This document shows, one piece after another, positions 23,082-60,558 of a stretch of DNA of 64,000 nt. The position numbers were made by a program, and so were the translations under genes. Source of the DNA: a virus; IMG/VR virus record IMGVR_UViG_3300035660_000001, positions 96,140 to 160,139 of that record. One strand, 5' to 3'. Under the pieces are notes generated by a model that worked only from the letters and a program-made list of their open reading frames with translations, made no database searches and was not told the DNA's origin. Every line of letters begins with the position of its first letter. Positions within the stretch are counted from its first letter, which is position 1.

Positions 23082-23085
23082 TGCC

Positions 23086-24246
23086 ATGAGCGTAATCTTA
23101 GAAGTCGTCTACGATCCGTCGAAGCGGAAACTGCGGGTGCGACCGCAGGGCAGGGATGGCTGGGTTCAGTTCCCGAACGGCCTCCGGACGGAAGGCGCTC
23201 GTTACGAGGTGGACGATCTCAAGGCCGATCCCACAGGTTTCTACCGTGTGGTCGGGTCGATCCGGCCTTGCACCTCTCGACCCGTCACCTTAGAGGCCAC
23301 GACGCCACACCTCGTGAAGGCGGCTAAGGTGGTCGAAGCCCGGAGCGTCGATCAGGTCGCCCGGAGCACCTACATGGGATGCAAGGGACAGACGCCGAGC
23401 GATCTGCTCGGGGACTACGATGAGGGCTACATCGCCGATCTGAAGCTCGACGGGAACTGGGGTGAGTTCCGGTTTGATCACCAATGCAGGTTGCGGGTGA
23501 CTTCCCGATCGGGCATGGATGCCACCAACCGGAAGGGTATCCGGGAGTGCGTGGAGCGATTGGAGGCCTCGGCCTTGAAGTGCAGACTGCACGACACGAT
23601 TCTGATCGTGGAGAACATGATTGGGACGCAGATCGGGGTCAAGGCTCAGGAGGAGTTCGGGTTTGCCCCAAACATCGTATTCGATGTGATCGGGGTCCAG
23701 GGAAAGAACCTCTGCGACGCCTTCCTGATGGATCGGAGGCGCCAGCAGGAGGAGATCGTTCGGAAACTTCAGGCCCATCTGCCGGAGGGGATGCTTCGGA
23801 ACGTGGAGTGGTGGGACGGCAAGTTCAAGACCCAATACGACAAGATCATCGCCCGGGGCGGGGAGGGGCTTGTCCTCAAGCTCAAGAATTCGATCTACCG
23901 ATCCGGGATCGACTCGCCGGACTGGATCAAGTGCAAGAAGGAAGTGGAGTCCGACATGGTTCTGATGGGCGTGACCTTCTCGGATGCGAAATCCTATGTC
24001 GGCGAGGGCCTGATCAAGTGCATCCGGGTCGGGATGTTCAGGGACGGAGAGCTCGTTCACGTCAACGATGTCGGGGCGATGACCGTGGAAGATCGCCGCT
24101 GGTTCACCAAGAACTGGAAGGCTAACGTCGGGAAGCTCGTGGTGGAAATCCACGGCTGGGAGCGGTTCGAGTCCGGAGCCCTCCGGCATCCGGCGTTCAG
24201 GCGTATCCGCACGGACAAGAGAGCAGAGGAGTGCATCCTATCATGA
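23086..24246 (+). CDS. ATP-dependent DNA ligase with extra N-terminal domain
   Basis: KLDG (motif I), FDV, EGLVLK, WIKCK, LRHPAFRRIRTDK. Confidence 0.9.
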   Translation: MSVILEVVYDPSKRKLRVRPQGRDGWVQFPNGLRTEGARYEVDDLKADPTGFYRVVGSIRPCTSRPVTLEATTPHLVKAAKVVEARSVDQVARSTYMGCKGQTPSDLLGDYDEGYIADLKLDGNWGEFRFDHQCRLRVTSRSGMDATNRKGIRECVERLEASALKCRLHDTILIVENMIGTQIGVKAQEEFGFAPNIVFDVIGVQGKNLCDAFLMDRRRQQEEIVRKLQAHLPEGMLRNVEWWDGKFKTQYDKIIARGGEGLVLKLKNSIYRSGIDSPDWIKCKKEVESDMVLMGVTFSDAKSYVGEGLIKCIRVGMFRDGELVHVNDVGAMTVEDRRWFTKNWKANVGKLVVEIHGWERFESGALRHPAFRRIRTDKRAEECILS

Positions 24247-24566
24247 GCGTCATTCTGGAATGCGTCTATGATGACGTGAAGCACAAACTGCGGGTCCGCC
24301 CGCAGGACAGGAACGGCTGGGTCCAGTTTCCGAAGGGCCTTCGCAGGGAGGGGGCTCTGTTTGAGGTCGACGATCTCAAGCATGATGCCCGGGGCTTCTG
24401 GCACGTGGTCGGGGATATCCGTCCCTGCACGTCCCTACGGAGGGAGATGGAGAGGACGGAGCGTCGGCCTGCACCCCGGCCTACGGTGCGAGCTCGGGGG
24501 CGGGATGCCCAATCGCCCGTCCCTACCGATGATGACGCACCGTTCGGCGTTGTGGGGGGCTTGTGA
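24243..24566 (+). CDS. Stand-alone copy of ligase N-terminal domain, with FGVVGGL tail
   Basis: MSVILE.VYD...KLRVRPQ...GWVQFP.GLR shared with the 23086 ORF. Confidence 0.75.
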   Translation: MSVILECVYDDVKHKLRVRPQDRNGWVQFPKGLRREGALFEVDDLKHDARGFWHVVGDIRPCTSLRREMERTERRPAPRPTVRARGRDAQSPVPTDDDAPFGVVGGL

Positions 24567-24587
24567 GGCCACGATCTGCAGGTCTTG

Positions 24588-24624
24588 GGGTTTACAGTAT
24601 CCCCTACGGGGATACTGTAAACCC
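24588..24624. terminator. Perfect 17-bp hairpin (terminator or processing site)
   Basis: GGGTTTACAGTATCCCC-TAC-GGGGATACTGTAAACCC; no U-tract. Confidence 0.55.
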
Positions 24625-24688
24625 TGGGTGGATAGTGCACGAAGATGCCCTACTTGGAAAAGATTTTTAAGAATTCTCGTCAAAGCCC

Positions 24689-24717
24689 TTGACTGTCAAT
24701 CTGAGGTATGTTATAAT
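24689..24717 (+). promoter_or_regulatory. sigma70-type early promoter
   Basis: TTGACT-17bp-TATAAT; upstream AAAGATTTTTAAGAATT. Confidence 0.85.
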
Positions 24718-24768
24718 ATAACCGTAGTCAGAAGGTAATCCCCTAACCCCAAGTAGGAGGAGAGCAAG

Positions 24769-25086
24769 ATGTCAGACGTGAAGATCAGCAGGACGCAGAC
24801 CATCGTGGGTTATGACTTTCGGAGCGGCATCGATTCCGGCCTAGACATTTTCAGAGGCCGGGGAGAGATGCTCGACGAAGGCAAAGCTCCGGTGGTCTTT
24901 ACCTGGGAAGCCCGGAAGGACGGAAAGAAGGCCCACCTGAGCGTGGCCATCATCCTTCCGAAGAACGCCCCAGAGGAAATGGCGGACATTACTAAGAGGC
25001 TGTATCCGGCCATTCTCGACAGCATCAAGCCTCCCAGAAAATCCCGCAAGGCTTTCAAAATCCACGTCGGCGAAGAGAGGAGCTAG
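24769..25086 (+). CDS. Hypothetical protein
   Basis: Strong SD. Confidence 0.6.
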   Translation: MSDVKISRTQTIVGYDFRSGIDSGLDIFRGRGEMLDEGKAPVVFTWEARKDGKKAHLSVAIILPKNAPEEMADITKRLYPAILDSIKPPRKSRKAFKIHVGEERS

Positions 25087-25088
25087 CC

Positions 25089-25409
25089 ATGACCCCGAAG
25101 ACAGCGAAGGACTTCACAAGGTGGATGGCCCCGAGGCTTCTCGAGACGCTCGAGGGCGAAGAGATCAGGCTGTTCATGACTTCCCCTGGCGCTCACAAGG
25201 AGTTCGGGGGGCAGGAGCCCTACAACGGAGTCATCGCAGTGAAGGGCGGCCATCTTATGTTCGACGGGACGGATCGGGGGCGGATCTCGAGTGCCCTGGC
25301 GATGTCCCTGTTCAGAGATGCGTTCTACGGTCAGTTCGGATACCTGCCGGGATCCCAGCGGGCGGTCCAGGCCATGCACGAAGAATTCGGGTCACCGAAA
25401 GGAGTATGA
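25089..25409 (+). CDS. Hypothetical protein
   Basis: SD GAGGAG. Confidence 0.55.
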   Translation: MTPKTAKDFTRWMAPRLLETLEGEEIRLFMTSPGAHKEFGGQEPYNGVIAVKGGHLMFDGTDRGRISSALAMSLFRDAFYGQFGYLPGSQRAVQAMHEEFGSPKGV

Positions 25410-25413
25410 AGCC

Positions 25414-25839
25414 ATGAAGCAGAACGACGTCGGAATCAACATCCAGCCGCCCGAGCAGGCGGTGGGGTCGCTCAGGGACGATCTCAAGAGGTGGCTGACC
25501 GTGAAGGCCAACCTCAGCGACATGCGGAAGGAAGTCGAGCGGCTCGAGGAGATCGAAGAGGGTATCCGGAGGGCGCTCGCTCCCGAGATCATGACCTTCC
25601 CCAACCAGCAGGTGGCGGTTGGAGATAGCACGATCGTGGCGTCGATCGCCCACAGGGACTCGCCCAAGTATAAGGATGCCTTCGAGCTCGCCCTCACGAA
25701 GGTCAATGAGGCGACGCAGGCCATCATAGCCGACGCCCTGGCCTCGACGATGGGTCACAGCGAGTGGCCGGAGCTCAAGGTCAAAGCCGGGAAGAAGCTC
25801 AAGGTCAAGGCCATCGTGGGAACGGTTCAGGTAGCCTGA
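25414..25839 (+). CDS. Hypothetical coiled-coil protein
   Basis: SD AAGGAG; heptad-like segment. Confidence 0.6.
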   Translation: MKQNDVGINIQPPEQAVGSLRDDLKRWLTVKANLSDMRKEVERLEEIEEGIRRALAPEIMTFPNQQVAVGDSTIVASIAHRDSPKYKDAFELALTKVNEATQAIIADALASTMGHSEWPELKVKAGKKLKVKAIVGTVQVA

Positions 25840-25983
25840 GAGCCGAGGGGTGCGGGGGCGACCTCGCAAGACGGTGTGCGTATCCGACACCATGACGCAG
25901 AGTCCACCCCCGCACTAAGGCCACGCAGGATATCCCAAGTAACCTGCAGGCGAAGTTAACCCCAAGTAAAAGGAGAGACGGAG

Positions 25984-26379
25984 ATGAAGTTCAGAGATTC
26001 ATACGGAGAGTTCAAAACGAAGGTGAAGGATGCCTTCGTGGCGCTGAGGAAGCAGGGCTATCAGTGCCGGATGAATTTCATGTGCTGTCAGTCATGCGGC
26101 TGGGCGGCTCTCTCGACTGAGGGCGAGAGAGCGGTCTTCTGGCACAGGCAGGACACCGAAGGCTACAACGATCAGGAGCCCGGCCTCTACATGGCTTGGA
26201 GCGGTGACGGAAACGAAATTAAGAAAGCTCTTGAGGACGCAGGGCTGAAGGTGGAGTGGGACGGAACCCGTGACGGGCGCATCTGGGTCGAGCTAAAGCC
26301 TGCGCTTGAAATCAAGCCGGTGCTCATGCCCCAGAGCGAGGCATACCTTCGGACGATGGCTCTTTCGATCGGCGCGTAA
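25984..26379 (+). CDS. DUF6891-like protein
   Basis: AF.ALRKQG...NFMCCQSCG...FWHRQD...GLKVEWDG pattern. Confidence 0.6.
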   Translation: MKFRDSYGEFKTKVKDAFVALRKQGYQCRMNFMCCQSCGWAALSTEGERAVFWHRQDTEGYNDQEPGLYMAWSGDGNEIKKALEDAGLKVEWDGTRDGRIWVELKPALEIKPVLMPQSEAYLRTMALSIGA

Positions 26380-26407
26380 CGATAACCCCAAGAGAGGAGA
26401 GACGACA

Positions 26408-26962
26408 ATGGGAGTGGATGCGAAGGTGAACTTAGACCCGAGAACCGAAGTGCGGAAGGTTTCGGAAGTACTCGGGAAAATCCTGGGCTGTGAGAGCTCG
26501 ATCCAACCCCTTCCTGGGGGCGGGGGAGAGTATCACATCTACGTCGACGTTCAGGGCGCGAAGGTGAGGCCGTCCAACGAAGTAACCTGTTGCTATATCG
26601 ATGTCGACAACGGCAGGGGCTACGCCCACAGCTTTCTGTATCACTTCGAAGGCTACGACGGGGGTCGGCTGATTATGGGCGGGTCGACGGCGACGAACAT
26701 CGCCATCTTCCGGCGCCTGGCGGACTTCTTCGGAGGGACGGTCGACTACAACGACTGCGACAGCAAGAAGGTGAACTACCGATGCCAGCCCCTGCCCTTC
26801 GCCTTCGCAGACGACGACGAGGATTGGGCGAAGCTCCAGAGGGAGATCAATGGGGTCCAGCCGCTCACCCTGCACGAGGTCAAGAAGTTCGATCGGTACG
26901 CCGGGTATCCCTGGGATCGGGACGAGGAGGAAACACTCAAGAGGATCAGCGGGGAGGCGTGA
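26408..26962 (+). CDS. Hypothetical phage protein
   Basis: SD GAGGAG; FGGTVDYNDCD motif. Confidence 0.6.
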   Translation: MGVDAKVNLDPRTEVRKVSEVLGKILGCESSIQPLPGGGGEYHIYVDVQGAKVRPSNEVTCCYIDVDNGRGYAHSFLYHFEGYDGGRLIMGGSTATNIAIFRRLADFFGGTVDYNDCDSKKVNYRCQPLPFAFADDDEDWAKLQREINGVQPLTLHEVKKFDRYAGYPWDRDEEETLKRISGEA

Positions 26963-27210
26963 TGCGGAAAGCCCGGATCATTAAAATAACCCCGGAGTTC
27001 GATGAGAATGTCCGCAGTCGCAACCTTTTCAGGGTTACTTATCGGGGGTGGGACGGCCAGGAGTGGTTCGGAGATAATACCTGGGAGGACGTCCGACTTC
27101 AGAAGATCTGCGAGAGGTTGATCGATGCCGGATTCAAGGAAGAGGATTTGAGAGAGTTCGAAGAGGCGGTCCGGGAGCTCGTGGATTGTGAACGAGAATA
27201 TCAGGACTGA
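26962..27210 (+). CDS. Hypothetical protein
   Basis: TGATG coupling. Confidence 0.5.
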   Translation: MRKARIIKITPEFDENVRSRNLFRVTYRGWDGQEWFGDNTWEDVRLQKICERLIDAGFKEEDLREFEEAVRELVDCEREYQD

Positions 27211-27224
27211 GGGAGGAATAGATT

Positions 27225-27416
27225 ATGGTGAAGCGATTCGACGTAATGATTAGGCAGGGCTTCATCAGGAGATGGCGCCGTTCCGTGACGATGAGGAAGG
27301 CGTTGAAGCTCGGCGTTCCACGGCTGGCGGTGTCGGATCTCGATGTGATGGACGAATATGCTGAGGGTGAGGATCTCGGCAAGCCGGATAATCTCCGGGT
27401 GATAAGAGTGCAGTGA
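27225..27416 (+). CDS. Hypothetical protein
   Basis: SD GGAGG. Confidence 0.5.
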   Translation: MVKRFDVMIRQGFIRRWRRSVTMRKALKLGVPRLAVSDLDVMDEYAEGEDLGKPDNLRVIRVQ

Positions 27417-27451
27417 TAATTAAAATTTTGAAGGATAGGAGGTGAATCATA

Positions 27452-27802
27452 ATGTCCAATAAGAAGTCCGCAGACGCATATCGTGATCGGGTGATCGCCT
27501 TGCACAAGGAGGGCAAGAAGGATTCCCAGATCGTTCGGGATCTGAAGATCTCGAGAGGCATGGTGTGGAGAATCATGAAGGCTTTCAAGAAGGGCGGGCA
27601 CGTGGCCAAGCCGGGATCCAAGAAGGCCGCTCCGAAGGCCCAACCGAAAGCGAAGGCCGAGGCCAAGAAGCCGGAGGCAAAACCGGAGGCCCCGAAAGCG
27701 GAATCCGCAAAGGCCGATCCGAAGGCTCAGGTCGTGGACGCCGACAAGGCTCGGGCGGAGGCCAAGCTGAGAGGCGCCAAGGTCACAGCCAAAGGTCTAT
27801 AG
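27452..27802 (+). CDS. HTH DNA-binding protein with Lys/Ala/Pro-rich tail
   Basis: SQIVRDLKISRGMVWRI HTH; SD AGGAGGTGA. Confidence 0.7.
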   Translation: MSNKKSADAYRDRVIALHKEGKKDSQIVRDLKISRGMVWRIMKAFKKGGHVAKPGSKKAAPKAQPKAKAEAKKPEAKPEAPKAESAKADPKAQVVDADKARAEAKLRGAKVTAKGL

Positions 27803-27899
27803 CCGATGGGGTGCGGGGTCATCCCCGCACTTAAGGCACAAGGCAGGTCCAAAGTCCTGCCCTGGATCTAACCCCAATACCCGGTCTGAAGGAGATGCG

Positions 27900-28130
27900 A
27901 TGGCGAGAGAACAAAAACGACAGGAAGTGAAGGACGCCCTCTGGCGGCTTGACGAAGAAGTTTCCCGGCTATCCGGAGAAGCTTCTCGGAGAGTTGGTGA
28001 GGCGTGGAAGGCTTACGTCGAGCACGAGAAGGACTGGCGTAAGCACCTCAAACACGCCGGGGTCGCCTTGAGAGATGCGGAAAATAAAGTAAGTATGGCG
28101 TGGGAATCACTCGACGTGAAAGACTTATAG
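27900..28130 (+). CDS. Hypothetical protein
   Basis: SD AAGGAG. Confidence 0.55.
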   Translation: MAREQKRQEVKDALWRLDEEVSRLSGEASRRVGEAWKAYVEHEKDWRKHLKHAGVALRDAENKVSMAWESLDVKDL

Positions 28131-28139
28131 GAGGATGTG

Positions 28140-28349
28140 ATGGGGCTGAATGATTCTCAGGGATGCTCGACAACCAAGACCCCCGGTCAGTTCGCCTACG
28201 ATGAATTCACATCGAAGTTCACAGGCCGGAGGATGGTGCAGTGGGACTACCGGGACAGCAAAGGCAATCTCTTCTCCGGGGTGGCCAAGTCCGTGGAGGC
28301 CGCCCGGGAGGTCGCTCGGAAACAATCTGGGGAGCCCGTAGAGGGCTAA
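28140..28349 (+). CDS. Hypothetical phage protein
   Basis: QWDYRDSKGNLFSGVA motif; SD AGGAGG. Confidence 0.6.
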   Translation: MGLNDSQGCSTTKTPGQFAYDEFTSKFTGRRMVQWDYRDSKGNLFSGVAKSVEAAREVARKQSGEPVEG

Positions 28350-28361
28350 AGGAGGCTGTAG

Positions 28362-28688
28362 GTGCTTACGCTCGTTCTGGTGGGGGTTTCCCTCCTACTC
28401 CTGGTGATCGCCCGCCTGTGGGCTTACAGGAGGCTAAAAAGGGGGGTAAACGCCTCTACCCAGCGGGTGCTCAGAGCGTGGGACTGGGGGAGGCTGATCC
28501 TGCTGAGCCTGGGGGGCGTGGCTTCCGTGATCGGGGGCGGTCTGTGGGCTTGGGGCCTAATGATCGTGGTGGTCATCCTGATTGAAGTGGCCATGCCCTT
28601 CGTGATGGTCAGTCCCCCGGATCGGTCCAACGGGAAGTGCAGGCGGCCTCCCCCGACCCGGGGCAACGAGAACAGAATAGTTCTATGA
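28362..28688 (+). CDS. Small membrane protein
   Basis: Two to three hydrophobic segments. Confidence 0.55.
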   Translation: MLTLVLVGVSLLLLVIARLWAYRRLKRGVNASTQRVLRAWDWGRLILLSLGGVASVIGGGLWAWGLMIVVVILIEVAMPFVMVSPPDRSNGKCRRPPPTRGNENRIVL

Positions 28689-28694
28689 AGGAAG

Positions 28695-28733
28695 CCCTGG
28701 CGGGTCCAGCGGGATTCGCCAGGGTAACTTTTT
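28695..28733 (+). terminator. Probable intrinsic terminator
   Basis: CCCTGGCGGGTCC/GGATTCGCCAGGG hairpin followed by TAACTTTTT. Confidence 0.6.
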
Positions 28734-28744
28734 AATGAACCCTC

Positions 28745-28773
28745 TTGACAATTACTTTGGAATCCGCTATAAT
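28745..28773 (+). promoter_or_regulatory. Consensus sigma70 promoter upstream of the operon containing Tas and the TIGR array
   Basis: TTGACA-17bp-TATAAT. Confidence 0.85.
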
Positions 28774-28881
28774 GTTAACCTCTGATGGATGTTCTTTACA
28801 AAGGAGTCGGTTGTGGTGTGATGGGGTGGATGTCCCTCTCGATAGGGAATTCACCCCATAACCTCATGAGGAAGATTTATT

Positions 28882-29409
28882 ATGGCTAGGATTTATCAGC
28901 GAAAGAAATTAAGGGTTGGCGACCACGTCGAAGTCCTTCAGATCCATTCCCAGTCCGATTATAGTTTCCTGGTCGGGACTCGGGGGGTCGTTAAGGGGGC
29001 CGGACATGCCGGGGCTTACGCCGTCCAGTTCTGCAAGAGACATCGGGATCTGAATACCTGTGATGGGTGTTGCCTTCCGGATCGTGGTCTGTGGCTTGGG
29101 AGGTCTCAGCTCAAGCTCGTGTCCGATCATCCCGTTTACTACCCATCCGATCAGGTGAGAAGGTCCCGGCGTAATGCGGCTCAGGCAGTTCCCCGGCGTC
29201 GTGTTCACAACGCCGACGAGCGGGAGGCTCTGGGGAGGCGTGGACGGGTCGGAACGGATCCCGTCAGCCAGGCCCGGGCGCATTATCGGAACACGGTAAG
29301 GACTCTAGCGATGGCCGCCGTCCAGATGGTCACCCGGAAGGAAAAGCAAAGGCGTTCTCGGAAACCGTCCCTGAACGAGGAGGGCTTCGGAGTGATCGGG
29401 GAGCTGTGA
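28882..29409 (+). CDS. SH3/KOW-like protein with FGVIGEL tail
   Basis: LRVGDHVEV...GTRGVV...YAVQF; shared C-terminal motif. Confidence 0.65.
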   Translation: MARIYQRKKLRVGDHVEVLQIHSQSDYSFLVGTRGVVKGAGHAGAYAVQFCKRHRDLNTCDGCCLPDRGLWLGRSQLKLVSDHPVYYPSDQVRRSRRNAAQAVPRRRVHNADEREALGRRGRVGTDPVSQARAHYRNTVRTLAMAAVQMVTRKEKQRRSRKPSLNEEGFGVIGEL

Positions 29410-40284: not shown

Positions 40285-40643
40285 AGGTTTGTAGGTGGAA
40301 GAAGTGCCGGAAGAAGTTTGAGCCCCGGGCCCATGCTCAGGCGTATTGTAGTACCCGCTGTGTGATGGATGCCAACAACGAGAGGGATCGGCTCTGGTTG
40401 AAGGCTCACCCGGAGAAGGCGAAGGAGATGAACCGGAGGAAGCATCTCAGGAGACGCCGGAATCCGAAGAAGTGGGAAGCCTACAAGAAGTATCATCGGG
40501 ATTATAATGCTGTGCGTTTGTCTCTCGATAAGAACTTCAGGAAGCGTCGGAGGCTTTGGGAGAAGAAGGGACGCCTGAAGCGTCAGCTAATACGGATGGG
40601 AGTCGATCCGGCTACTCTTGAAAGTCTAACCTCGAAAGGATGA
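40281..40643 (+). CDS. Basic zinc-binding hypothetical protein
   Basis: C....C...YCSTRC; Arg/Lys-rich. Confidence 0.55.
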   Translation: MKVCRWKKCRKKFEPRAHAQAYCSTRCVMDANNERDRLWLKAHPEKAKEMNRRKHLRRRRNPKKWEAYKKYHRDYNAVRLSLDKNFRKRRRLWEKKGRLKRQLIRMGVDPATLESLTSKG

Positions 40644-40644
40644 A

Positions 40645-40836
40645 ATGGGAAGAGTCAAGTTCGTGACCGTCCGGCATGCCTGTGGTCACACGGAGACGTT
40701 TGAGGTTTCCGGAGACCCACAGGGCAACGCCCTGCTCATGAAGGTCCAGAAGCAAAGGCCGTGCCCGACGTGCGTAACGAAGGCTCGGGCGATCGGCCTT
40801 CAGGAGCCCTCAAAGAATTTTCCGGCAAGCCCTTGA
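40645..40836 (+). CDS. Small zinc-binding protein
   Basis: HACGH...CPTC. Confidence 0.55.
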   Translation: MGRVKFVTVRHACGHTETFEVSGDPQGNALLMKVQKQRPCPTCVTKARAIGLQEPSKNFPASP

Positions 40837-40861
40837 CAATTACTTTGAGAACCGTTATAAT
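40833..40861 (+). promoter_or_regulatory. Consensus sigma70 promoter
   Basis: TTGACA-17bp-TATAAT. Confidence 0.85.
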
Positions 40862-40884
40862 AAAGCCCATGAAGGAAAGATTCG

Positions 40885-41394: not shown

Positions 41395-41406
41395 ATACAA
41401 CGGAGG

Positions 41407-41910
41407 ATGCGAGAGATGACAGATGCTATAGGATCAGGAGCCGGAACACCGAGAAGGCCCCGGAGACTGACGTCCAATTCGGGCGGGATGTCTCGGGTGC
41501 GGAGAAGGTGGACCTCCGAAGATCTGACCAGGCTCGTTAAGTTATATAAGTATCGGTGCTGGCCTACGCTGATAAAGATTTTCCACCGCCCCCAAAAGGC
41601 AATCGCTCAGCGGGTTGGCATCCTAAAAAGAGAAGGGCGAATTGCGGAAGGAGCTCACCCTCCGAAGAATAGCCGTCATCTGCCGGACGCTCATGGAGGA
41701 GGTGGGTCGGCTCCCGTTCAGGCGCCTCCCTGTCCAGTACCACCTGCTCCCCCGACCCTTCTCGATCTTGCTCCTGCTGACCGGGCGACTCTCGATCGGG
41801 CCGAGCGTATAATCGGAATTGTGGGCCGGATAAATACAAACCGGGAGGAGCATGGAAGGCTCTTGGAGGAGTTAGGCCGAGCGTGTTCTCAACATGGAGG
41901 AGGACGATGA
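41407..41910 (+). CDS. Myb/HTH-like hypothetical protein
   Basis: RRWTSEDL..L..LY pattern. Confidence 0.5.
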   Translation: MREMTDAIGSGAGTPRRPRRLTSNSGGMSRVRRRWTSEDLTRLVKLYKYRCWPTLIKIFHRPQKAIAQRVGILKREGRIAEGAHPPKNSRHLPDAHGGGGSAPVQAPPCPVPPAPPTLLDLAPADRATLDRAERIIGIVGRINTNREEHGRLLEELGRACSQHGGGR

Positions 41911-42443
41911 AGAAGAAATCTAAACCCAAGAAGCCTTTGCCGAAGAAGGCCGTGAAGAAGGCCCCGGCGAAGGCCGAGACCCCGGAGGTCAAGACACCCG
42001 AGGAGCCCAAGGCTCCAGCGGCTCCAGCGGCTCCGGAGGTCAAGGCGCCGGAGAAGAAGTCTGCCCTTCCGACGTTCCCTGCGGACGTCGAGCTCAAGAA
42101 CATCCTGTTGTTTGAGGGGAGGCTTGGGCCCTTCCAGGTGGGGGAGAAGGTTTATAAGCACATCCTGGACTTTATGTGCGGCCGCTGGTACTGGGATGAG
42201 GCTCTTTACGGGGCTTACGTTCCGGAGGAGCTCCGGAAGGGTTACGTTCTCTTATCCAGAGGATGGGGAGATAGCCCGACCGAAGGATGGAGGGATCACC
42301 TGAGCAAGACCGCCGTCGAGCGGGGATCTCGAAGGTCGGACGGGTCGCTTCCATCGTGGATGATGGATTCCCTGAAGGTTATGACCATTGAGCAGTTTAA
42401 GGAATGGTTCAATAAAATGCTCGATCTCAAGCAATCCCAGTAA
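41907..42443 (+). CDS. Hypothetical protein with Lys/Pro/Ala-rich N-terminus
   Basis: SD GGAGGAGG. Confidence 0.55.
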   Translation: MKKKSKPKKPLPKKAVKKAPAKAETPEVKTPEEPKAPAAPAAPEVKAPEKKSALPTFPADVELKNILLFEGRLGPFQVGEKVYKHILDFMCGRWYWDEALYGAYVPEELRKGYVLLSRGWGDSPTEGWRDHLSKTAVERGSRRSDGSLPSWMMDSLKVMTIEQFKEWFNKMLDLKQSQ

Positions 42444-42473
42444 GGACAGAGTCCTTAAGAGAGGAGGTGAATC

Positions 42474-43001
42474 GTGGCACAGGAAGTGGTTTATAGCGGA
42501 AATCCCCCGGAGTTCGTCGATCCACAGCTCATGCAGGTGTGGGCGTATGTGACTACTCTGGACCCGCTCGACGAGAAGCGGGACGTCGTGGTCGTCGACA
42601 ATCTCTCTGCGGAGTGGCAGGAGCGGTATCGGGAGGTATTCTTCTGGCGGTTCCACCGTCTGCGGGTGAAGAACGAAATCGACTTCCACATGAGCGTGAA
42701 GGACTTTGAGCATGTTTCCAAACTGGCGGTCGAGTACTTCCGCTTCGAGACGATGGAGAACGTCGCTATGCAGATGTTCTACCGGGATATCCGGGAGAAG
42801 TTCAAGCAGTGGGACAAGACACAGCTCGGCCTCCGGGTGAATACCGAGAAGGACGGAAGGCAACAGCCCGTTGACGTTTGGAAGGTCGTGTGGGTTCCCC
42901 CGCCGAACGAGGCCGGGACTAAGGATACCCTCGCCGACATCATCAGGGCAAACCCAGAGCAGGTTCGTGTTTTGACCAATCCGTCTTTGAGGACGGGTTG
43001 A
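42474..43001 (+). CDS. Hypothetical protein
   Basis: SD AGGAGGTGA. Confidence 0.6.
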   Translation: MAQEVVYSGNPPEFVDPQLMQVWAYVTTLDPLDEKRDVVVVDNLSAEWQERYREVFFWRFHRLRVKNEIDFHMSVKDFEHVSKLAVEYFRFETMENVAMQMFYRDIREKFKQWDKTQLGLRVNTEKDGRQQPVDVWKVVWVPPPNEAGTKDTLADIIRANPEQVRVLTNPSLRTG

Positions 43002-43042
43002 TCGCAGTCGTTAACCCATTTCAATGAAGGGAGGTGACGTAA

Positions 43043-43282
43043 GTGGAGAACGAAAGCTACTTCAACCTGACCAAGCTCGGCGCGACACCTTCGCGCCCTC
43101 AGCTTCCGGATGGAGGCCAGAGGCTCACTGTAGGAGAGATGCTGGAACAGCAGGTCGGCGCGAAGGGGAAGGAGGCCGAAGGCTACACGGTCAACGTCGA
43201 CGGTCGGTCGGTCGGTCTGAACGACGTGATCATGCCCGGCTCGAACGTCGTGGTTCTGAAGTCCCTTAGACTTGGTGACTGA
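43043..43282 (+). CDS. Ubiquitin-like (beta-grasp) protein ending LRLGD
   Basis: 79 aa; TVGEML, VNVDG, PGSNVVV; penultimate Gly; first gene of an E2/JAB/E1 operon. Confidence 0.7.
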   Translation: MENESYFNLTKLGATPSRPQLPDGGQRLTVGEMLEQQVGAKGKEAEGYTVNVDGRSVGLNDVIMPGSNVVVLKSLRLGD

Positions 43283-43355
43283 TTCCCCTCGGGGGTCCAA
43301 GCTCTAAGTCTGCAGACTCGGCGGCTTGTGGAGTCCCCACAGCCGCCGAGGGGAA
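43283..43355 (+). promoter_or_regulatory. Strong hairpin between Ubl and E2-like genes
   Basis: CTCGGCGGCTTGTGG/CCACAGCCGCCGAG; alternative pairing TTCCCCTCGG/CCGAGGGGAA. Confidence 0.5.
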
Positions 43356-43384
43356 TTTAACTAACGTGGAGAACGAGAAAGGAT

Positions 43385-44851
43385 ATGGCAAGATGGAGGG
43401 CATTTACGTGCTCGAGGGAGCAGGAGGAACTCCTGAGAGGATCCCGCATCACCTATGCCCGTATCAATTCCTCGGAGATTCAGGTTTCGGAGGACGTCGC
43501 CTTTCAGGTAGACGAGCTTCTCTCCGGAGCCGTGAGGAGCAATGGTATGAGCACCGGAAATGATATAGCCTTTCCCCCGATCACGGGTCGGAGGGATCAC
43601 AGGGACGCCGTAGAGGCGCCCAAGAAACCCGCTCCGGCGCCGGGTCCCCGGTTTATTATCCCAAGCCTTGAGAATGCCGAGGCCATGTTCTCGTGGCTCA
43701 ACAAGTTCGCTGGACTCAAGGCCGAAGTGATCATCCCCCACGCCGAGACGCCACCGAAGAACGTCCGGGTCGACGTGGATCAGAACGTCGACGAGAGGTT
43801 CAGGATTTACGTGATCGCCTTCCCGGATATCGAAGCCGGGAGCGTAGTCAAGAAGGGAACTCGGGAACGGTTCACCGTCTTAGGCCGGAGCTTCGCGATG
43901 GAGTCCGGAGAGGATGATTGCCTCGAGCTGTCCAATCCCAAAGCCTTCACGGATCGGGGTTGGAAGCTCATGACCGATGACAACGGAATACCCCTGGCGA
44001 TCTGGAAGGATCGGAACCTCTTCTTCCTGTGGGATATCGCCCACAGGAAGGACCTCAGCGGGGTCGATCTCGAGGACAAGGTCAACCTCTCGAAATATAT
44101 CGTCTTGCTGTGGCTGTCGGACGTTAAGGATCCCGAGCCCCTCAAGAAGTGGGTCGATGAAGTCAAGTCCAGGTTCTCAAAGGACTTTGTGGTCGGGCCG
44201 ATTCTGCTGGATGCCCTGAAGGAGCGGCATCAGACGGAGATTAAGAAGGTTGGCGAGGCCCTGAAGGATTTGAAGGGTAAGATCGACCTTTCGGCCCGGA
44301 CCCTCCGGACGCAATACGACGAACGGCATACCCTCGAGATCACGCTCGAGATTCACAAGGCCCTTGCCGGGAAGGTCGATCAGATGTTCAAGGATCAGAT
44401 CGAAGCTTTGAGGGGCCATCCCAAGATCGACCGGATCAGGTTCTTCGCGGCCGATGGCAGGGACAGCGTGATGCGTTTGGAGATCGTAACCAAGCCGATC
44501 GCATGGAAGGACTGGTGGCTTGGGCAGTATCAGTTTACAATCCCCCTGACGGAGGGCGCCCATCAGGTCATCGTGACCAATCTCTATCCCCCGCCATCGG
44601 GACGGCCTCACCCGCACATCAAGACGCCGGACAACGTCTGCTGGGGTAATTCCGGGTCGACGGTCCAGGAGCTTCTGTCGGGGTTGAGGTTCTTCGAGTT
44701 GACGGATCTGCTGGTTTGCATCGTGCAGTCCGTGACGCCCTCGGACGGATGGGGGTCGTCGGTCAGGGAGTGGCAGGACAGTGCAGTGCAGAGCAGGTAC
44801 ATTAAGATTTTCGGCAAGGTTCCTAAATCAAAAACGGAGGATGCGAGATGA
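43385..44851 (+). CDS. Coiled-coil protein with C-terminal prokaryotic E2-like domain
   Basis: PHPHIKTPDNVCWGN resembles the E2 HPx...C active-site segment; operon context. Confidence 0.65.
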   Translation: MARWRAFTCSREQEELLRGSRITYARINSSEIQVSEDVAFQVDELLSGAVRSNGMSTGNDIAFPPITGRRDHRDAVEAPKKPAPAPGPRFIIPSLENAEAMFSWLNKFAGLKAEVIIPHAETPPKNVRVDVDQNVDERFRIYVIAFPDIEAGSVVKKGTRERFTVLGRSFAMESGEDDCLELSNPKAFTDRGWKLMTDDNGIPLAIWKDRNLFFLWDIAHRKDLSGVDLEDKVNLSKYIVLLWLSDVKDPEPLKKWVDEVKSRFSKDFVVGPILLDALKERHQTEIKKVGEALKDLKGKIDLSARTLRTQYDERHTLEITLEIHKALAGKVDQMFKDQIEALRGHPKIDRIRFFAADGRDSVMRLEIVTKPIAWKDWWLGQYQFTIPLTEGAHQVIVTNLYPPPSGRPHPHIKTPDNVCWGNSGSTVQELLSGLRFFELTDLLVCIVQSVTPSDGWGSSVREWQDSAVQSRYIKIFGKVPKSKTEDAR

Positions 44852-45477
44852 AATCTAGGAAGTCGGACGACGGCTCCGATACGCCGTCGATTAAGATCAC
44901 CCTCAAGGCGTGGCGTAAAATCCTGCTCTTCGCGCAGGAGACGAACGTGGAGGTGGCCGGGCTCGGGACGGTCCAGATGCGAGGCAACAAGCCCGTCATC
45001 GACGACGTGATGGTTTTCAAGCACGAGAACCGCAGTGCGGCGGCGGCGGATCTCGACCCGCAGGATATCGCCGATGAGTTCTCCCGGCTGGTGGAGGCGA
45101 AGCAGGACACCGGGAAGTACCGTCTGTGCTGGCATAGCCATGTGAATATGGAAGCGTCCTTCAGCGGGACGGACAGGGCCTGCATGAATAGCCTTGCCGA
45201 TCTCTCGGAGTGGTTTCTGTGGATCGTGGTCAACAAGAGCGGGGACTATTCGGCGATGGTTACCGTCTACTCCCCGATCCGGCACTTCGCAGAGGCCAAG
45301 CTCGACGTTCTCTTCGACGAGTTCGACAAGAGTTTGATCGCCGGGGTGAAGCAGGAGATGCAGGAGAAACTTTTTCGCCATCCGGGTAAGGGTGAAGAGG
45401 CTTCTGAGGCTCCTGCGGTGGAAGGGCTGATCGAAGCATCGAAGACCGGGGTCCAGCAGGTTTTGGAGGGTCCATGA
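44848..45477 (+). CDS. JAB/MPN (JAMM) metallo-isopeptidase
   Basis: Upstream E(VAG) plus WHSHVNMEASFSGTD (HxH-x7-S-x2-D). Confidence 0.85.
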   Translation: MKSRKSDDGSDTPSIKITLKAWRKILLFAQETNVEVAGLGTVQMRGNKPVIDDVMVFKHENRSAAAADLDPQDIADEFSRLVEAKQDTGKYRLCWHSHVNMEASFSGTDRACMNSLADLSEWFLWIVVNKSGDYSAMVTVYSPIRHFAEAKLDVLFDEFDKSLIAGVKQEMQEKLFRHPGKGEEASEAPAVEGLIEASKTGVQQVLEGP

Positions 45478-46187
45478 CCACTCCGTCTACCATGAACCGG
45501 GACTTCTGGCGGCAGACGGACTTTTTCGATCCCATGAAGACGCCTGTGACTGCTACGGTCATAGGCGTCGGAGGGATCGGGTCGTTCACTGCGCTCGCTC
45601 TCGGGAAGCTGGGGATCAAGGAGCTCGTCCTCGTCGATCCGGACCTGGTGGAGGCTCACAACGTCCCCAATCAGCTCTTCAGGGTGCGCGACGTGGGGGA
45701 GGCGAAGGTCGTTGCCGCCGCTCATCTGATCAGGGAGCTCACGGGCATTGAGGAGATCAAGACCTGGGTCATGAGGTTTCCTCCGAAGGATAACCCGTAC
45801 CCGAAAGAGCTGATCACGACCGACCTCGTGGTCTGCGGGGTGGACACGATGCAGGCCCGGAAGGAAATCTGGGCGTCCGGGATCCGGCGTAACCCCGGGG
45901 TGAAGCTGTTCATCGACGGGCGGCTAGGGGGCGAGCAGTTACGAATCCTGTCCGTCAAGGATACCGTTTCGACGGATCAAATCGAACGCTACGAGCAGAC
46001 GATCGTTCCGGACGAGACGGTCCCCGACCTGCCCTGCACGGCCAGGGCGATCATCGATGTGGGATTTGTCATGGCCGCTTACATCACCCGGCTGGTCCGG
46101 AGGCACTTCACCGGACAGGCCATCCCGTTCGAGACCGTAGCCGACGTGAGCTTCCAGCTTCAGGGCCAGCTCTTTGAGTGGGGATAA
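45474..46187 (+). CDS. ThiF/E1-like activating enzyme
   Basis: GVGGIGS, DPDLVEAHNVPNQ, K, VDTMQAR, DGRLG; candidate catalytic Cys in PCTAR. Confidence 0.9.
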   Translation: MTTPSTMNRDFWRQTDFFDPMKTPVTATVIGVGGIGSFTALALGKLGIKELVLVDPDLVEAHNVPNQLFRVRDVGEAKVVAAAHLIRELTGIEEIKTWVMRFPPKDNPYPKELITTDLVVCGVDTMQARKEIWASGIRRNPGVKLFIDGRLGGEQLRILSVKDTVSTDQIERYEQTIVPDETVPDLPCTARAIIDVGFVMAAYITRLVRRHFTGQAIPFETVADVSFQLQGQLFEWG

Positions 46188-46492
46188 TGCCGTTCAAGCT
46201 CCAGGATTTCCATGTGGGCGACACCGTCAAGGTCGCCTGCCGTTGCACGATGCATCGGTTCGAGTTCAAGAACGACATGGGCGTCGTCGTTGCCCTCAAG
46301 CCTGCGGAGGGGGCTCTCCACTACGATACCATGTTCATCTGCCTTGACCGGAAGCGGAAGGACAGGAAGAGGTCGTTCCCTCCCCGGGGCGTGGACATTC
46401 CATCGGACGAGTGCCTGGCTTTGTTTTCCCACCGGTGTAACGTCGAATTCATAACCTCCGAGGAGAGGATATTCTTGAGGGAGCCGATTTGA
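46187..46492 (+). CDS. SH3/KOW-like protein, tail IFLREPI
   Basis: FHVGDTVKV...MGVVV. Confidence 0.6.
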   Translation: MPFKLQDFHVGDTVKVACRCTMHRFEFKNDMGVVVALKPAEGALHYDTMFICLDRKRKDRKRSFPPRGVDIPSDECLALFSHRCNVEFITSEERIFLREPI

Positions 46493-46854
46493 GAGGCAAG
46501 AGGAGATTCAAGATCGGAGATGTGGTGAAGGTTACGATGCTTGTGGATGCCAATAACTCCTTTCTCTTTCCCGGGGGACTACCCTTTCGAAATGACGGGG
46601 AGCCTGTTAAGGCGATTACTATGGGGGGAGAGCTAGCTGATCGAAGCAGTCTTCTCCTGAAGCTGGGAGTCATTGAGGACGTTAGAATTCAGCGGGGTGA
46701 AAAATTGAAGGTCACGGCTTACGTCGTGGCCTTCTTTAAGTCCGGTTCCGGGGTCCAGGATAAGTCCTTTGACGGGTATGCCCCGTTCCTGGGGGATGAG
46801 CTCGAGCTCGTGTCGAAGGTCGGGGAGAAGGCTATCGTGATCGGGGGGATATGA
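46489..46854 (+). CDS. SH3/KOW-like protein, tail AIVIGGI
   Basis: FKIGDVVKV...YVVAF...DELELV. Confidence 0.6.
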   Translation: MRGKRRFKIGDVVKVTMLVDANNSFLFPGGLPFRNDGEPVKAITMGGELADRSSLLLKLGVIEDVRIQRGEKLKVTAYVVAFFKSGSGVQDKSFDGYAPFLGDELELVSKVGEKAIVIGGI

Positions 46855-47306
46855 TGTCCGTGGAATATGATCTCTCTTCGATACCGCATCTCGATGAGTT
46901 CCGGCGTTTGGAAGTGATAGGCGTGGACTGGGGCGAGGAAGTCAATACCTCTGCCGCCCCCGAGCCGAAGCCGGAGCCTAAGTTCAAGGTGGGGGATGCC
47001 GTGAGGATTATAGTCTCTCCCGAAGATGAAGTCATGGGGGAATGGCTGAGTAGGAAGCCTGGGCTCGGGGATTTATTTAGGATGACTGCGGGAATAATTT
47101 GTGAGGTCGATCAGACGGAAGGATTTTACGGCCCGTTCTACCAGTATGCTATCGGGTTCGGGATAGAACATCCCGAGCTGACGGATTGCGGCAAGAGGCT
47201 TTCTCCCTACAGCGGGATCTGGATGCGGGAGGATGGGCTCGTACCTGCCCGGCTCGAGGATGTTCTGCACGAGTCCAAACAGATCTTTGTGATCGGGTCG
47301 CTCTGA
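46851..47306 (+). CDS. SH3/KOW-like protein, tail IFVIGSL
   Basis: KFKVGDAVRI...YAIGF...LTDC. Confidence 0.65.
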   Translation: MMSVEYDLSSIPHLDEFRRLEVIGVDWGEEVNTSAAPEPKPEPKFKVGDAVRIIVSPEDEVMGEWLSRKPGLGDLFRMTAGIICEVDQTEGFYGPFYQYAIGFGIEHPELTDCGKRLSPYSGIWMREDGLVPARLEDVLHESKQIFVIGSL

Positions 47307-47581
47307 TGCCGTTCAGCATTGGCGATCCCGTCAAGGTGATATCCGTGAGCGACGCCCTGGACCCGGACGACAAGGCGTTCAGGGAGTTCATGATCGGTCG
47401 GGTCGGGGTCGTCGGGGCTATCTGTGCGGAATGCCATGAGGAGTATGCCGTCCAGTTTAATGCCGAGTCGCCCTTCCTCGGCGACTGTGACGGGGTTCTT
47501 CCGGGAGGTCACGGCTGGTGGTTTACGGAGGCCGAGCTCGAGGCGACGGAGGGTGAGTTCGGGATCGTAGGTGGGTTATGA
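47306..47581 (+). CDS. SH3/KOW-like protein, tail FGIVGGL
   Basis: FSIGDPVKV...YAVQF...LGDCDG...GWWF. Confidence 0.7.
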   Translation: MPFSIGDPVKVISVSDALDPDDKAFREFMIGRVGVVGAICAECHEEYAVQFNAESPFLGDCDGVLPGGHGWWFTEAELEATEGEFGIVGGL

Positions 47582-47943
47582 TCTCGGGACTAAATAAATT
47601 AGTTAATTATCCTGGCGCGATGCATCTGCCCGGACATAAAACCAAGTTTGATCTTGGCGATCAGGTGAAGGTTACGAGCCCCCTTCCGGGAGCCCTCACT
47701 CCGGAAGAATACATTGGGTTGGAGGGTGAGGTAGTTAACATTGTTCATATTGTTAAAGAAGCCGAGGTGACCGGGGCGAACCTAGATCCGACCGATGGGA
47801 CGCTCCACGTCGACATGAAGGTGAAGATCGATCATGACGAGTATGTTATTAAAATCCCGTGTAAGGCGGACATCACCCTTACTTTCAAAGAGAACGAGCT
47901 CGTTCTTGCCCCAGAGAAGTTCGGGGTCAGGGAGGGCATCTGA
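47578..47943 (+). CDS. SH3/KOW-like protein, tail FGVREGI
   Basis: KFDLGDQVKV...IGLEGEV...ENEL. Confidence 0.65.
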   Translation: MISGLNKLVNYPGAMHLPGHKTKFDLGDQVKVTSPLPGALTPEEYIGLEGEVVNIVHIVKEAEVTGANLDPTDGTLHVDMKVKIDHDEYVIKIPCKADITLTFKENELVLAPEKFGVREGI

Positions 47944-48371
47944 TGGCCGCTCCTTTTAGGGAAAGAGATATAGATCGCCCGGACTTTGCCACCGGTAGTT
48001 ACCTATCTAGAGTTCTTGATACTCTTCAACGGCTTGAGCGCAGAATAGAAGACCTTCATGTCGATATGGAAGAGCTCCGGAGAGAGCTTCGCATGAGAAC
48101 CGGCGGGACCACCGAACCCCACCGGGGGATGGCAGTCGATGCCGATGATGTTATCGATGACGTTTTGGGGGTTCAGAGAGGAATTCAAGGAGAGCGGCCT
48201 CCGGTCGATCCGCATGACATCGACTTCAACGGTCCGAATATGGACAGGCTGAGAAATTTTATAATGGAGGAGGCGAGAAGGTATATCGACGACCCAGATG
48301 AGGTTCCTGATCGGCCAGAACAAGAGCCCGAGCTTCCGGATGACACCCCGCACGTTGTGGGATCGATCTGA
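47943..48371 (+). CDS. Acidic coiled-coil protein, tail PHVVGSI
   Basis: Translationally coupled; shared tail. Confidence 0.6.
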   Translation: MAAPFRERDIDRPDFATGSYLSRVLDTLQRLERRIEDLHVDMEELRRELRMRTGGTTEPHRGMAVDADDVIDDVLGVQRGIQGERPPVDPHDIDFNGPNMDRLRNFIMEEARRYIDDPDEVPDRPEQEPELPDDTPHVVGSI

Positions 48372-48610
48372 TGAAGTTCGAGGTGGGAGACCGGATCAAG
48401 ATCGTTCGGAATCTCACCGAGAAGGGTTGCAAGCTCAGGGGCAAGAAGGGGATGATCATGGGCGTGGTTACAAAGAGAAAGCGTAACGGAGGGCCCCGGC
48501 TTTACTCCGTCCGACTGGAAAGGTGTGCGGGGCTGTGGATTCTCGATGAGGCCGACCTCGACTTTGAGAGTAAGAAGCGTGAGCCCTTCCGTCTGATAGG
48601 AGCAATCTGA
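48371..48610 (+). CDS. SH3/KOW-like protein, tail FRLIGAI
   Basis: KFEVGDRIKI...YSVRL. Confidence 0.65.
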   Translation: MKFEVGDRIKIVRNLTEKGCKLRGKKGMIMGVVTKRKRNGGPRLYSVRLERCAGLWILDEADLDFESKKREPFRLIGAI

Positions 48611-49365
48611 TGTCCGATTCTGGTAATGAGTCCCTGTTTGAACGGGTAATCCGGGGCATCGGACTGCAGAGGAGGCGAGAGTCGCCGCCGATAGTGATGT
48701 CGACCATGCCTTCCGGGGGGACGCAGGTGGACTTGGTTGAGAGAATAATGAATGAAGATCTCGCGAGGGCAATGCGAGCTCACGGGGAAGCGTATGGAGG
48801 TATGTCCGGATTCTCTGGCTTCTCTTTCGCTTCTGGTCTTTCGGGGTCGAGCTGGGCGCCCGGGGGAACGTGGGGCATGGCGGATCCAGCGACCGGGGTA
48901 AGGTTCTCAGGCCAGCGGGGTTATTTCGGCGTCCCGGGCTGGGAGGGAGTGCCTGGGCTTCCCGAGGGTTGGCCGGAAGCCAAACCTGCAGAGGGTTACA
49001 AGCCCGGGGAAAGAATAGCTCGGGTCGATGAGTCGACTGGACAGGTGGTCGTGGATGGTCCAGAGCATCCGACGACCCTCTACGGGCTGTCGATCGGGGA
49101 CTTCGTCGTGGTGGATAGTGTTTTCCCCTTGGTGTCCCACAACAAGAAGTTTATTTTCAATAAGACGAGCGGTTACATTAAGCATATCATCCGGGCCGGG
49201 TACGCCTGGGTCGAGATCGACGGGCAGTGCCCCTGCAATGACGATTCCCGGGAGAGAAAGCAGTTGTGGCATTCCGCTAAGGGCCACTGCCACTGGTTCC
49301 CCAATTCCGTCCTCTTCCTTGCGGACGAGAGCACGGCAAAGTTCTATGTGAGGGGTTATCTATAG
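48610..49365 (+). CDS. Gly-rich plus SH3-like protein, tail FYVRGYL
   Basis: SGFSGF..SGLSG segment; LSIGDFVVV. Confidence 0.6.
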   Translation: MSDSGNESLFERVIRGIGLQRRRESPPIVMSTMPSGGTQVDLVERIMNEDLARAMRAHGEAYGGMSGFSGFSFASGLSGSSWAPGGTWGMADPATGVRFSGQRGYFGVPGWEGVPGLPEGWPEAKPAEGYKPGERIARVDESTGQVVVDGPEHPTTLYGLSIGDFVVVDSVFPLVSHNKKFIFNKTSGYIKHIIRAGYAWVEIDGQCPCNDDSRERKQLWHSAKGHCHWFPNSVLFLADESTAKFYVRGYL

Positions 49366-49417
49366 CCGGGGCGAGAAGATCGCACCTGGGGCATTTAAGG
49401 GGCTAAGGAGGGCTGAA

Positions 49418-50194
49418 ATGAGCGAGACATTGGGGGGAGATACGACGATGGGCCCGACGGGTCCGGGAAGGGAGATGCCCGGGTTGGACATTCCCCGAGA
49501 AAGAGAGGCTCCGAATAGGAGGGATCCCGAACGAATCCGGGCGGCAATAGACCCGATGGAGTTTCCGGAGGGTAGCACGAGGTTCGCGTTGGGGGCTACT
49601 CCACCGGATCGTGCGTGGACGCAATCCCTGGCAAGGAAACAGGCGATCGTCGGGAACGCCATGCGGAGGATTTTTCAGGTTCTCAGAGCCGCTTCTCCCG
49701 AATTGATAATACGGGATGAGGACGGTTTGATAAGAACAAGGATTGTCGCCGTTTTGAAGGAGATCTACCATGCCGGGGAGTTTTATGGTCGGAGTGCAAG
49801 CGGCGGTCCGGAATTCAACGTCATGGAGTTTCAGGCCGACTTCGAGAGGTTTCGTAGCCATACGGTCGAACGGTTTGATAATCTATTCGGGCAGTACCGG
49901 ACCATTCTAAGGAGGCTCGAGGGCTTAATGCAGGAGAGGAGACCACCGACCGGAGCTGGAATGGTAACCGGAGGGATCGGACCCCGCAGAGGGGAGCACA
50001 TGGAGGGATTCGATCGGGCGATGAGGGATATTCTGGGGGTAGATGATCCCCCGATCGGTGGGCCCCAGCCACCAGGGGAGGACCCCCCTGGGTTAGGGCC
50101 TATGCCGGAGAGACTTGATACGGATGATATCCTTGGTCCAGGAACCGATCTTGTCGACCCCGACGAGAACCCTCACGTGGTGGGGGGAATATAA
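49418..50194 (+). CDS. Hypothetical protein, tail PHVVGGI
   Basis: SD AAGGAGG; C-terminus similar to 47943..48371. Confidence 0.6.
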   Translation: MSETLGGDTTMGPTGPGREMPGLDIPREREAPNRRDPERIRAAIDPMEFPEGSTRFALGATPPDRAWTQSLARKQAIVGNAMRRIFQVLRAASPELIIRDEDGLIRTRIVAVLKEIYHAGEFYGRSASGGPEFNVMEFQADFERFRSHTVERFDNLFGQYRTILRRLEGLMQERRPPTGAGMVTGGIGPRRGEHMEGFDRAMRDILGVDDPPIGGPQPPGEDPPGLGPMPERLDTDDILGPGTDLVDPDENPHVVGGI

Positions 50195-60557: not shown

Positions 60558-60558
60558 T

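Follow-up and report, generated by a model that had tools for sequence, protein, structure and literature searches.

The 64,000-nucleotide window analysed here is the last 64 kb of the circular, 160,139-bp genome recorded as IMGVR_UViG_3300035660_000001, the genome of an uncultured phage in which 21 of about 240 genes (14 inside the window and seven outside) encode proteins that end in the same short peptide. This tail, with the consensus F-G-[VI]-x-G-x-[LI]-COOH behind an acidic linker, is real, strictly C-terminal and strongly enriched; it is confined to one small phage clade and, to judge from the comparison of orthologous codons, it is under purifying selection at the amino-acid level. We give an even chance to the idea that it docks the 21 accessory proteins on one common reader, which would more likely be a phage or host hub than the JAB and E1 enzymes encoded next to nine of the tail genes. 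A literature search found no description of the motif, and the principle of a shared C-terminal tag has precedents in T4, T7, encapsulins and degrons.

Genes were called over the whole genome with a simple codon-usage method. An ending in [VIL]xGx[LI] was observed in 16-18 of their products, against 0.63 expected from the internal frequency of the pattern (Poisson P about 2e-20), and in 2 of 2775 non-coding open reading frames (ORFs) once two missed genes had been set aside. The longer form FG[VI]xGx[LI] occurs eight times at C-termini and not once among 48,046 internal positions. A 12-column hidden Markov model of the tail, run on the six-frame translation of the genome, gave 15 matches, all of them ORF ends, and a de novo search for shared endings returned one dominant cluster in the genome (107 similar pairs versus 38.9 ± 6.5 in controls). 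These results bear out the enrichment proposed by an earlier, sequence-only reading of the window, which had listed 14 tails; every stop position and sequence of that list proved exact, with glycine at -3 in 12 of the 14 and leucine or isoleucine in last place in all of them. Information content peaks at alternating positions, namely -7 (3.1 bits, F), -5 (2.7 bits, V/I/L), -3 (3.0 bits, G) and -1 (2.9 bits, L/I); the residues in between are variable, and Glu or Asp is favoured at -9 and -10. Over the complete set, glycine stands at -3 in 18 of the 21 tails and at -2 in seven. The variant tails comprise two that end in [KR]-E-P-I and one hybrid in R-E-G-I.

Since the tail codons are G-rich and many of the stops lie in ATGA or TGATG overlaps, an origin from Shine-Dalgarno (SD) sequences needed testing. 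According to this explanation, the tail would be imposed by an SD, by the start/stop overlap for the downstream gene or by some other DNA or RNA signal; the SD-like character of the codons and the TGA stop of 17 of the 21 tail genes, often found within such overlaps, speak in its favor. Yet, when genes are counted as coupled if their stop and the next start are separated by -8 to +12 nt, the tail is present in 12 of 109 coupled and 9 of 131 uncoupled genes (Fisher P = 0.36), so that nine of the 21 tail genes lack a downstream gene coupled to them. Moreover, the pattern is missing from the other 97 coupled genes, which have no bias (G at -3 in 6/97, L at -1 in 6/97), and the codons of the last residue are diverse. 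Orthologues were compared for nine genes as trios made up of the present genome, IMG/VR UViG_3300031873_000001 and an ENA contig of 159,907 bp. Amino-acid differences affect 3.2% of the last seven codons versus 12-22% of the body codons, but synonymous differences are equally frequent in both (13-18% in tail codons, 12-16% elsewhere). That the synonymous rate is normal while the amino acids of the tail are kept points to selection on the peptide and not on the DNA. One orthologue with 59% identity and a diverged linker still ends in FGVRGAI, where the present genome has FGIRGAI. An SD or overlap by-product was rejected on the comparison of coupled genes and the orthologue codon test, and the chance that the tail is a nucleotide artifact of any kind appears negligible. 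The earlier suggestions that the tail acts as a protein-level signal, and that it should be conserved in orthologues, thus both stand.

The claim that the tail sits on unrelated bodies fared less evenly. It does not hold for eleven of the 21 carriers, which are paralogues of one SH3-like domain (approximately F-x-V-G-D-x-V-x-V ... Y-x-V-x-F ... D-C ... G-x-W), but it does for the ten others, whose bodies differ. A profile of the body without the tail finds exactly those eleven genes genome-wide, and every SH3-like paralogue bears the tail. AlphaFold2 (AF2) predicts the domain to be a five-stranded SH3-like barrel and not a beta-grasp fold; its Foldseek matches are KOW, Tudor, nitrile hydratase beta and PsaE folds, with CAP-Gly among the weak ones. 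In the two carriers modelled, the barrel is confident (pLDDT up to about 90) and the tail is predicted to be disordered (pLDDT 46-53). An exhaustive profile search of the SH3-like domain retrieved 444 representative proteins elsewhere. Many of these are long and contain SH3 repeats of the Xrn1 or Mind-bomb type in tandem (Pfam SH3_12, SH3_15). Among the 150 best of the 444, no homologue from outside the clade ends in the tail, which makes the tail a clade-specific addition.

The ten other carriers are a copy of the N-terminal domain of the DNA ligase, two proteins with weak ABA-sandwich matches, a probable membrane protein, one protein with a weaker hydrophobic segment, two charged Pro/Gly-rich proteins ending in PHVVG[SG]I and three small orphans; several of these bodies are disordered or coiled. 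Apart from the two weak ABA-sandwich matches, Pfam and PHROGs returned nothing on the carriers, and their look-alikes in the ESM Atlas are viral clusters only. The gene of the ligase copy directly follows that of the ligase (23044-24246); its residues 5-76 are 69% identical to residues 15-86 of the ligase, and a basic/acidic linker separates them from the tail, which the ligase itself lacks. The probable membrane carrier, encoded at genome positions 32638-33120 (L001:14638-15120), starts with MKNLL.... As eleven of the 21 carriers are paralogous, part of the recurrence of the tail is due to inheritance within a family. The tail is therefore integral to one expanded family and is also found on unrelated proteins, and the idea of a portable tag survives in a weaker form, supported by the several different bodies that carry it.

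The distribution of the tail is narrow. It is restricted to a tight clade comprising the present genome, two sister genomes of ~160 kb and fragments, and the tail model gives 15 matches in the present genome and 13 in a sister genome. The same model has no match in any of 20 records from T4-like relatives at 40-49% portal identity, and the de novo search for shared endings in a 194-kb T4-like relative (G008) retrieved none beyond basic low-complexity ends. The source phage is itself T4-like by sequence. It has a T4-type portal (PF07230) whose closest relatives beyond its own clade are 40-50% identical, its large terminase gave a weak match only, and blastn against phage GenBank returned no match. 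Its DNA was found in sediment metagenomes, one of which is the likely source, and no RNA run is listed among those that contain it.

Promoters of the sigma-70 type accompany many of the tail genes. Perfect TTGACA-17-TATAAT promoters lie at window positions 28745-28773, 40833-40861 and 50207-50235, matches at 11 of the 12 positions are found at window 24689 and 35015 and at genome 27312, and a further perfect or near-perfect one is found at genome 12272; all of them are intergenic and on the + strand. The promoter at 28745 directly heads a unit that begins with two tail genes, the one at genome 27312 heads a cluster of small genes, five of them tail genes, between the terminase and portal genes, and the array of nine tail genes lies downstream of the promoter at 40833 and ends just before that at 50207. 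The T4-type late promoter TATAAATA is virtually absent from the genome. Transcription of many of the tail genes probably relies on the host polymerase in its unmodified form, and their promoters suggest that they would be expressed early. Promoters of this type also point to a host that is a bacterium with a canonical sigma-70.

Several scenarios may explain these observations, and we favor docking on a common reader. The tail would lie as an extended strand in a groove of this reader, the residues at -7, -5, -3 and -1 would face it and the glycine at -3 would permit a close backbone contact; the 21 small accessory proteins would in this manner be gathered at one place. The binding mode could be strand addition, with one face of the tail buried and its carboxylate recognised. 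Four features of the tail are those of a docking peptide of this kind: the conserved positions alternate, one of them demands a small residue, the C-terminus is free and the linker is acidic and flexible. Phages provide precedents for such an arrangement: T4 gp43, gp33 and gp55 have a common clamp-binding C-terminus, and in T7, gp2.5 and gp4 each use an acidic C-terminal tail to dock on gp5. As in the present case, otherwise different phage proteins bear one short end peptide behind a flexible, often acidic linker; in T4 and T7, this peptide binds one hub. The present phage nevertheless has another motif and far more carriers (21), none of which is a known replication or transcription enzyme. 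It also differs from T4 in having no detected T4-type clamp N-domain or family-B polymerase. Two known classes of C-terminal ligands were tried and rejected. Clamp-binding motifs follow the consensus QL[SD]LF or QLxLxL, or have a T4-type ending, and the tail has glycine where they have leucine; among the phage proteins, neither the ligase nor the DnaB-like helicase, the primase or RecA bears the tail, the host beta clamp not having been tested. A PDZ-binding motif would fit the final leucine or isoleucine, but the glycine stands two residues before it, and a PDZ_2 search that found the domain in 14 of 14 control genomes found none in the phage genome (host PDZ proteins being outside this search).

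Some points weigh against docking. No reader was identified, and the searches of the phage genome for reader domains gave no match to PDZ_2, PF02916 (the gp45 N-domain) or PF00136 (PolB). More than half of the carriers are paralogues, which makes the recurrence partly inherited. The motif is found in only three or four near-identical genomes and does not vary among them, hence no co-variation with any candidate reader can be obtained. Finally, an ending that is nonpolar, disordered and strictly C-terminal fits a degradation signal equally well. If docking is correct and one reader gathers a tenth of the phage proteins, the tail would mark a functional set of small proteins that are otherwise unannotatable, and its 12 residues used as a bait would give a direct handle on the hub. 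Once one case is solved, the "dark" accessory genes of many phages would become easier to interpret, and the tail might also serve as a compact, portable peptide for targeting or destabilising proteins.

The main rival of docking is a degron: the nonpolar tail would be read by an AAA+ protease or adaptor of the host or the phage (ClpXP, FtsH, Lon), and the carriers would be short-lived and cleared together. Work of the Sauer laboratory reportedly showed that nonpolar C-terminal pentapeptides destabilise proteins in E. coli, and the SsrA tag acts likewise; such degrons share with the tail their nonpolar, unstructured and strictly C-terminal nature and can be placed on any protein. The carriers are small accessory proteins from units with host-type promoters, and the probable membrane protein among them has a C-terminal end that is probably cytosolic, as in FtsH substrates. 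Nevertheless, the conserved phenylalanine at -7, the glycine at -3 and the acidic linker exceed general nonpolarity. The ending is unlike LAA-type tags and the conservation reaches seven positions back to include a near-invariant Gly and Phe; in addition, neither a protease nor an unfoldase was recognised among the phage genes. We consider a degron unlikely on this balance. Another possibility, which we find improbable, is a self-contained system in which the eleven barrels read the tails, forming head-to-tail chains or a scaffold to which the ten other tail proteins would be recruited. The presence of the tail on all SH3-like paralogues of the genome would be congruent with this scenario, as would the frequent role of SH3-like folds as peptide binders and the weak match to CAP-Gly, which binds acidic-aromatic C-termini. 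The AF2 models of the two carriers argue weakly against it, as neither of them docks the tail on the barrel of the same protein, even where the linker is 90 residues long. Alternatively, the tail could direct cargo into the virion or capsid, in the manner of encapsulin cargo, whose targeting peptides attach to the inside of an HK97-fold shell. These peptides are C-terminal, with Gly-spaced hydrophobics and a widely conserved GSL (native PLTVGSLRRGG, consensus DGSLGIGSLKG), and they resemble the tail further in their disordered linker and in being portable on unrelated cargo (PMC7925596). The core of the tail is encapsulin-like, GSL ending 4 of the 21 tails and [VI]-I-G-x-L many, T4-like head genes are present (the portal mentioned above), and the stretch from the terminase gene to the portal gene contains five tail genes. 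Yet that cluster and others are placed behind sigma-70-type promoters, mostly in accessory units and away from the capsid gene, whereas encapsulin peptides are encoded beside the shell gene. The basic residues that continue the encapsulin peptides after GSL are missing, the tail stopping at L/I after its acidic linker, and a probable membrane protein is among the carriers. The chance of a capsid tag thus seems very slim.

The position of nine of the tail genes calls for a separate consideration of the enzymes encoded beside them. As the sequence-only reading had stated, these nine genes (46178-50194) come after a ThiF/E1 gene. Eight of them are coupled via overlaps of 1-4 nt, and the ninth follows after a gap of 52 nt. 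The E1 is the last gene of a cassette (Table 1) whose ubiquitin-like protein (Ubl) is ThiS-like, with a one-residue cap (LRLG-D). The JAB protein belongs to Pfam Prok-JAB and the E1 to Pfam ThiF (minimal, ThiF/Uba5-like), and the 488-aa protein has no family match; the relatives in the PDB are Uba5, TcdA, ThiF, Cap2 (among those of the E1) and JAMM1. One could therefore imagine that the tails are capped substrates of the neighboring JAB and E1, which would be trimmed by one or two residues to Gly or Gly-x, adenylated, and conjugated or otherwise activated. The Cap2/Cap3 proteins of the type II cyclic-oligonucleotide-based antiphage signalling system (CBASS) and the tails of capped Ubls provide the model, with a Gly-containing C-terminal tail beside JAB and E1 genes: Cap2 acts on the CD-NTase tail, which shows that the substrate of an E1 need not have a Ubl body, and UFM1, Atg8 and QbsE are made as capped precursors that get trimmed. 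Besides the coupling of the nine genes, 13 of the 21 tails read hydrophobic-x-hydrophobic-x-G-[G/S/A]-[L/I], which, cut before the last residue, is LRLRGG-like.

The evidence on the other side is nonetheless considerable. The cassette has its own capped Ubl. Five further phage records, of which three are complete genomes, contain related cassettes that combine an E1 of 36-43% identity with a JAB and the C-terminal portion of the 488-aa protein; three of these cassettes are immediately preceded by a small ThiS-like ORF, whose end is AG-C (L003), GG-RLVG (L007) or DG (L006). None of the five records has a match to the tail, versus 15 in the present genome with the same model; the co-occurrence of the tail with the cassette, which had been proposed earlier as a check, is thus not seen. 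Moreover, 12 of the 21 tail genes are located away from the cassette, the common body is SH3-like and not beta-grasp, the supposed P1 residue is Y, E or P in seven tails, and the strongly conserved last residue would be the leaving group. Compared with capped Ubl and CBASS tails, the phage tail has its glycine at -3 and is best conserved at its last residue, and the hydrophobic residues of the Ubl tail stand in another register relative to the glycine than those of the 21 tails. A co-fold of four chains, namely the 488-aa protein, JAB, E1 and the C-terminal 30 residues of one tail protein, with an alignment for each, had a score of 0.00 with controls not run, and counts neither way. We regard processing of the tails by the neighboring JAB and E1 as quite improbable, and the earlier proposal of a JAB cleavage or E1 activation site is not supported in view of the cassette's own Ubl, the related cassettes without tails, the fold of the carriers and the difference in register. 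It is very improbable that the tails are capped activation sites through which 21 non-Ubl proteins would be adenylated and conjugated, in a viral Ubl-like system with many modifiers; such a system, if true, would extend what Cap2 does with the CD-NTase tail. Since the cassette has its own Ubl and is complete without tails elsewhere, the adjacency to the E1 gene is treated as an operon neighborhood.

Table 1 Tail genes and the adjacent Ubl/JAB/E1 cassette. Coordinates are window positions unless preceded by "genome"
Coordinates	Strand	Feature	Length (aa)	C-terminus	Remarks
24231-24566	+	Tail gene	111	FGVVGGL	Copy of the DNA-ligase N-terminal domain, then linker
28882-29409	+	Tail gene	175	FGVIGEL	SH3-like domain, ~90-aa helical/disordered linker, tail; first gene behind a perfect sigma-70-type promoter
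29406-29672	+	Tail gene	88	FGVEGEI	SH3-like barrel (AF2 and Foldseek)
31323-31547	+	Tail gene	74	FGVIGSL	SH3-like; the SD of the next gene lies past this stop
37241-37594	+	Tail gene	117	FGVRGGL	SH3-like
46178-46492	+	Tail gene	104	IFLREPI	SH3-like; variant tail; first gene behind E1
46489-46854	+	Tail gene	121	AIVIGGI	SH3-like
46851-47306	+	Tail gene	151	IFVIGSL	SH3-like
47306-47581	+	Tail gene	91	FGIVGGL	SH3-like; start most likely the ATG overlapping the upstream stop, not 47186
47578-47943	+	Tail gene	121	FGVREGI	SH3-like
47943-48371	+	Tail gene	142	PHVVGSI	Charged body, probably helical/disordered, not SH3-like
48371-48610	+	Tail gene	79	FRLIGAI	SH3-like
48610-49365	+	Tail gene	251	FYVRGYL	Gly/aromatic-rich N-terminal region, then SH3-like domain
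49418-50194	+	Tail gene	258	PHVVGGI	Pro/Gly/charged-rich, not SH3-like; perfect sigma-70-type promoter downstream
genome 166-552		Tail gene			Outside the window
genome 19479-19826		Tail gene			Outside the window
genome 28471-28647		Tail gene			Outside the window
genome 30079-30384		Tail gene			Outside the window
genome 30381-31259		Tail gene			Outside the window
genome 31262-31705		Tail gene			Outside the window
genome 32638-33120		Tail gene			Outside the window
43043-46187	+	Cassette			Four genes, listed below
43043-43282	+	Ubl gene
43385-44851	+	Gene of the 488-aa protein	488
44848-45477	+	JAB gene
45474-46187	+	ThiF/E1 gene

Some further observations concern the cassette. A long, strong GC-rich hairpin (43283-43384) lies between the Ubl gene and that of the 488-aa protein; it may act as a terminator or attenuator between the Ubl and its enzymes. 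The four-gene cassette, made up of a capped Ubl, a protein of ~490 aa, JAB and E1, is common to at least six otherwise unrelated phage records (the present one at 43043-46187, and L003-L007 around position 10000), among which the gene order varies and one fusion is found. The ~490-aa protein has a conserved C-terminal PHxHI...C-x-G region. Both sister genomes contain a duplicate of the opening ~25 codons of E1, the two copies being ~430 bp apart (L002:9489-9569 and 9995-10696; L009:6416-6490 and 6916-7617). An Endonuclease_7 gene was called between JAB and E1 in one assembly (a Logan contig) of a sister, and the E1 gene is uninterrupted in the window.

The remaining gene content is of the phage type and includes a collagen-like tail fibre, DNA methyltransferases, a DnaB-like helicase, a primase, an ATP-dependent ligase, RecA and sugar-modifying enzymes. 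At 33863-34756, among the tail genes, there is a weak Pfam match (28 bits) to the ATP-grasp family R2K_3, which a genome-wide family search did not recover. The R2K_3 proteins are predicted protein or peptide ligases with a proposed role in phage-host conflicts (PMC4431377). Its product had been considered a candidate for modifying the tails; that relatives gave no match carries no weight, since the search missed the match of the genome itself. Finally, 33 tRNA genes for nearly all amino acids are packed into ~5.5 kb at 58453-63958, in an array that spans the contig ends, where the two ends of the genome repeat a tRNA stretch.

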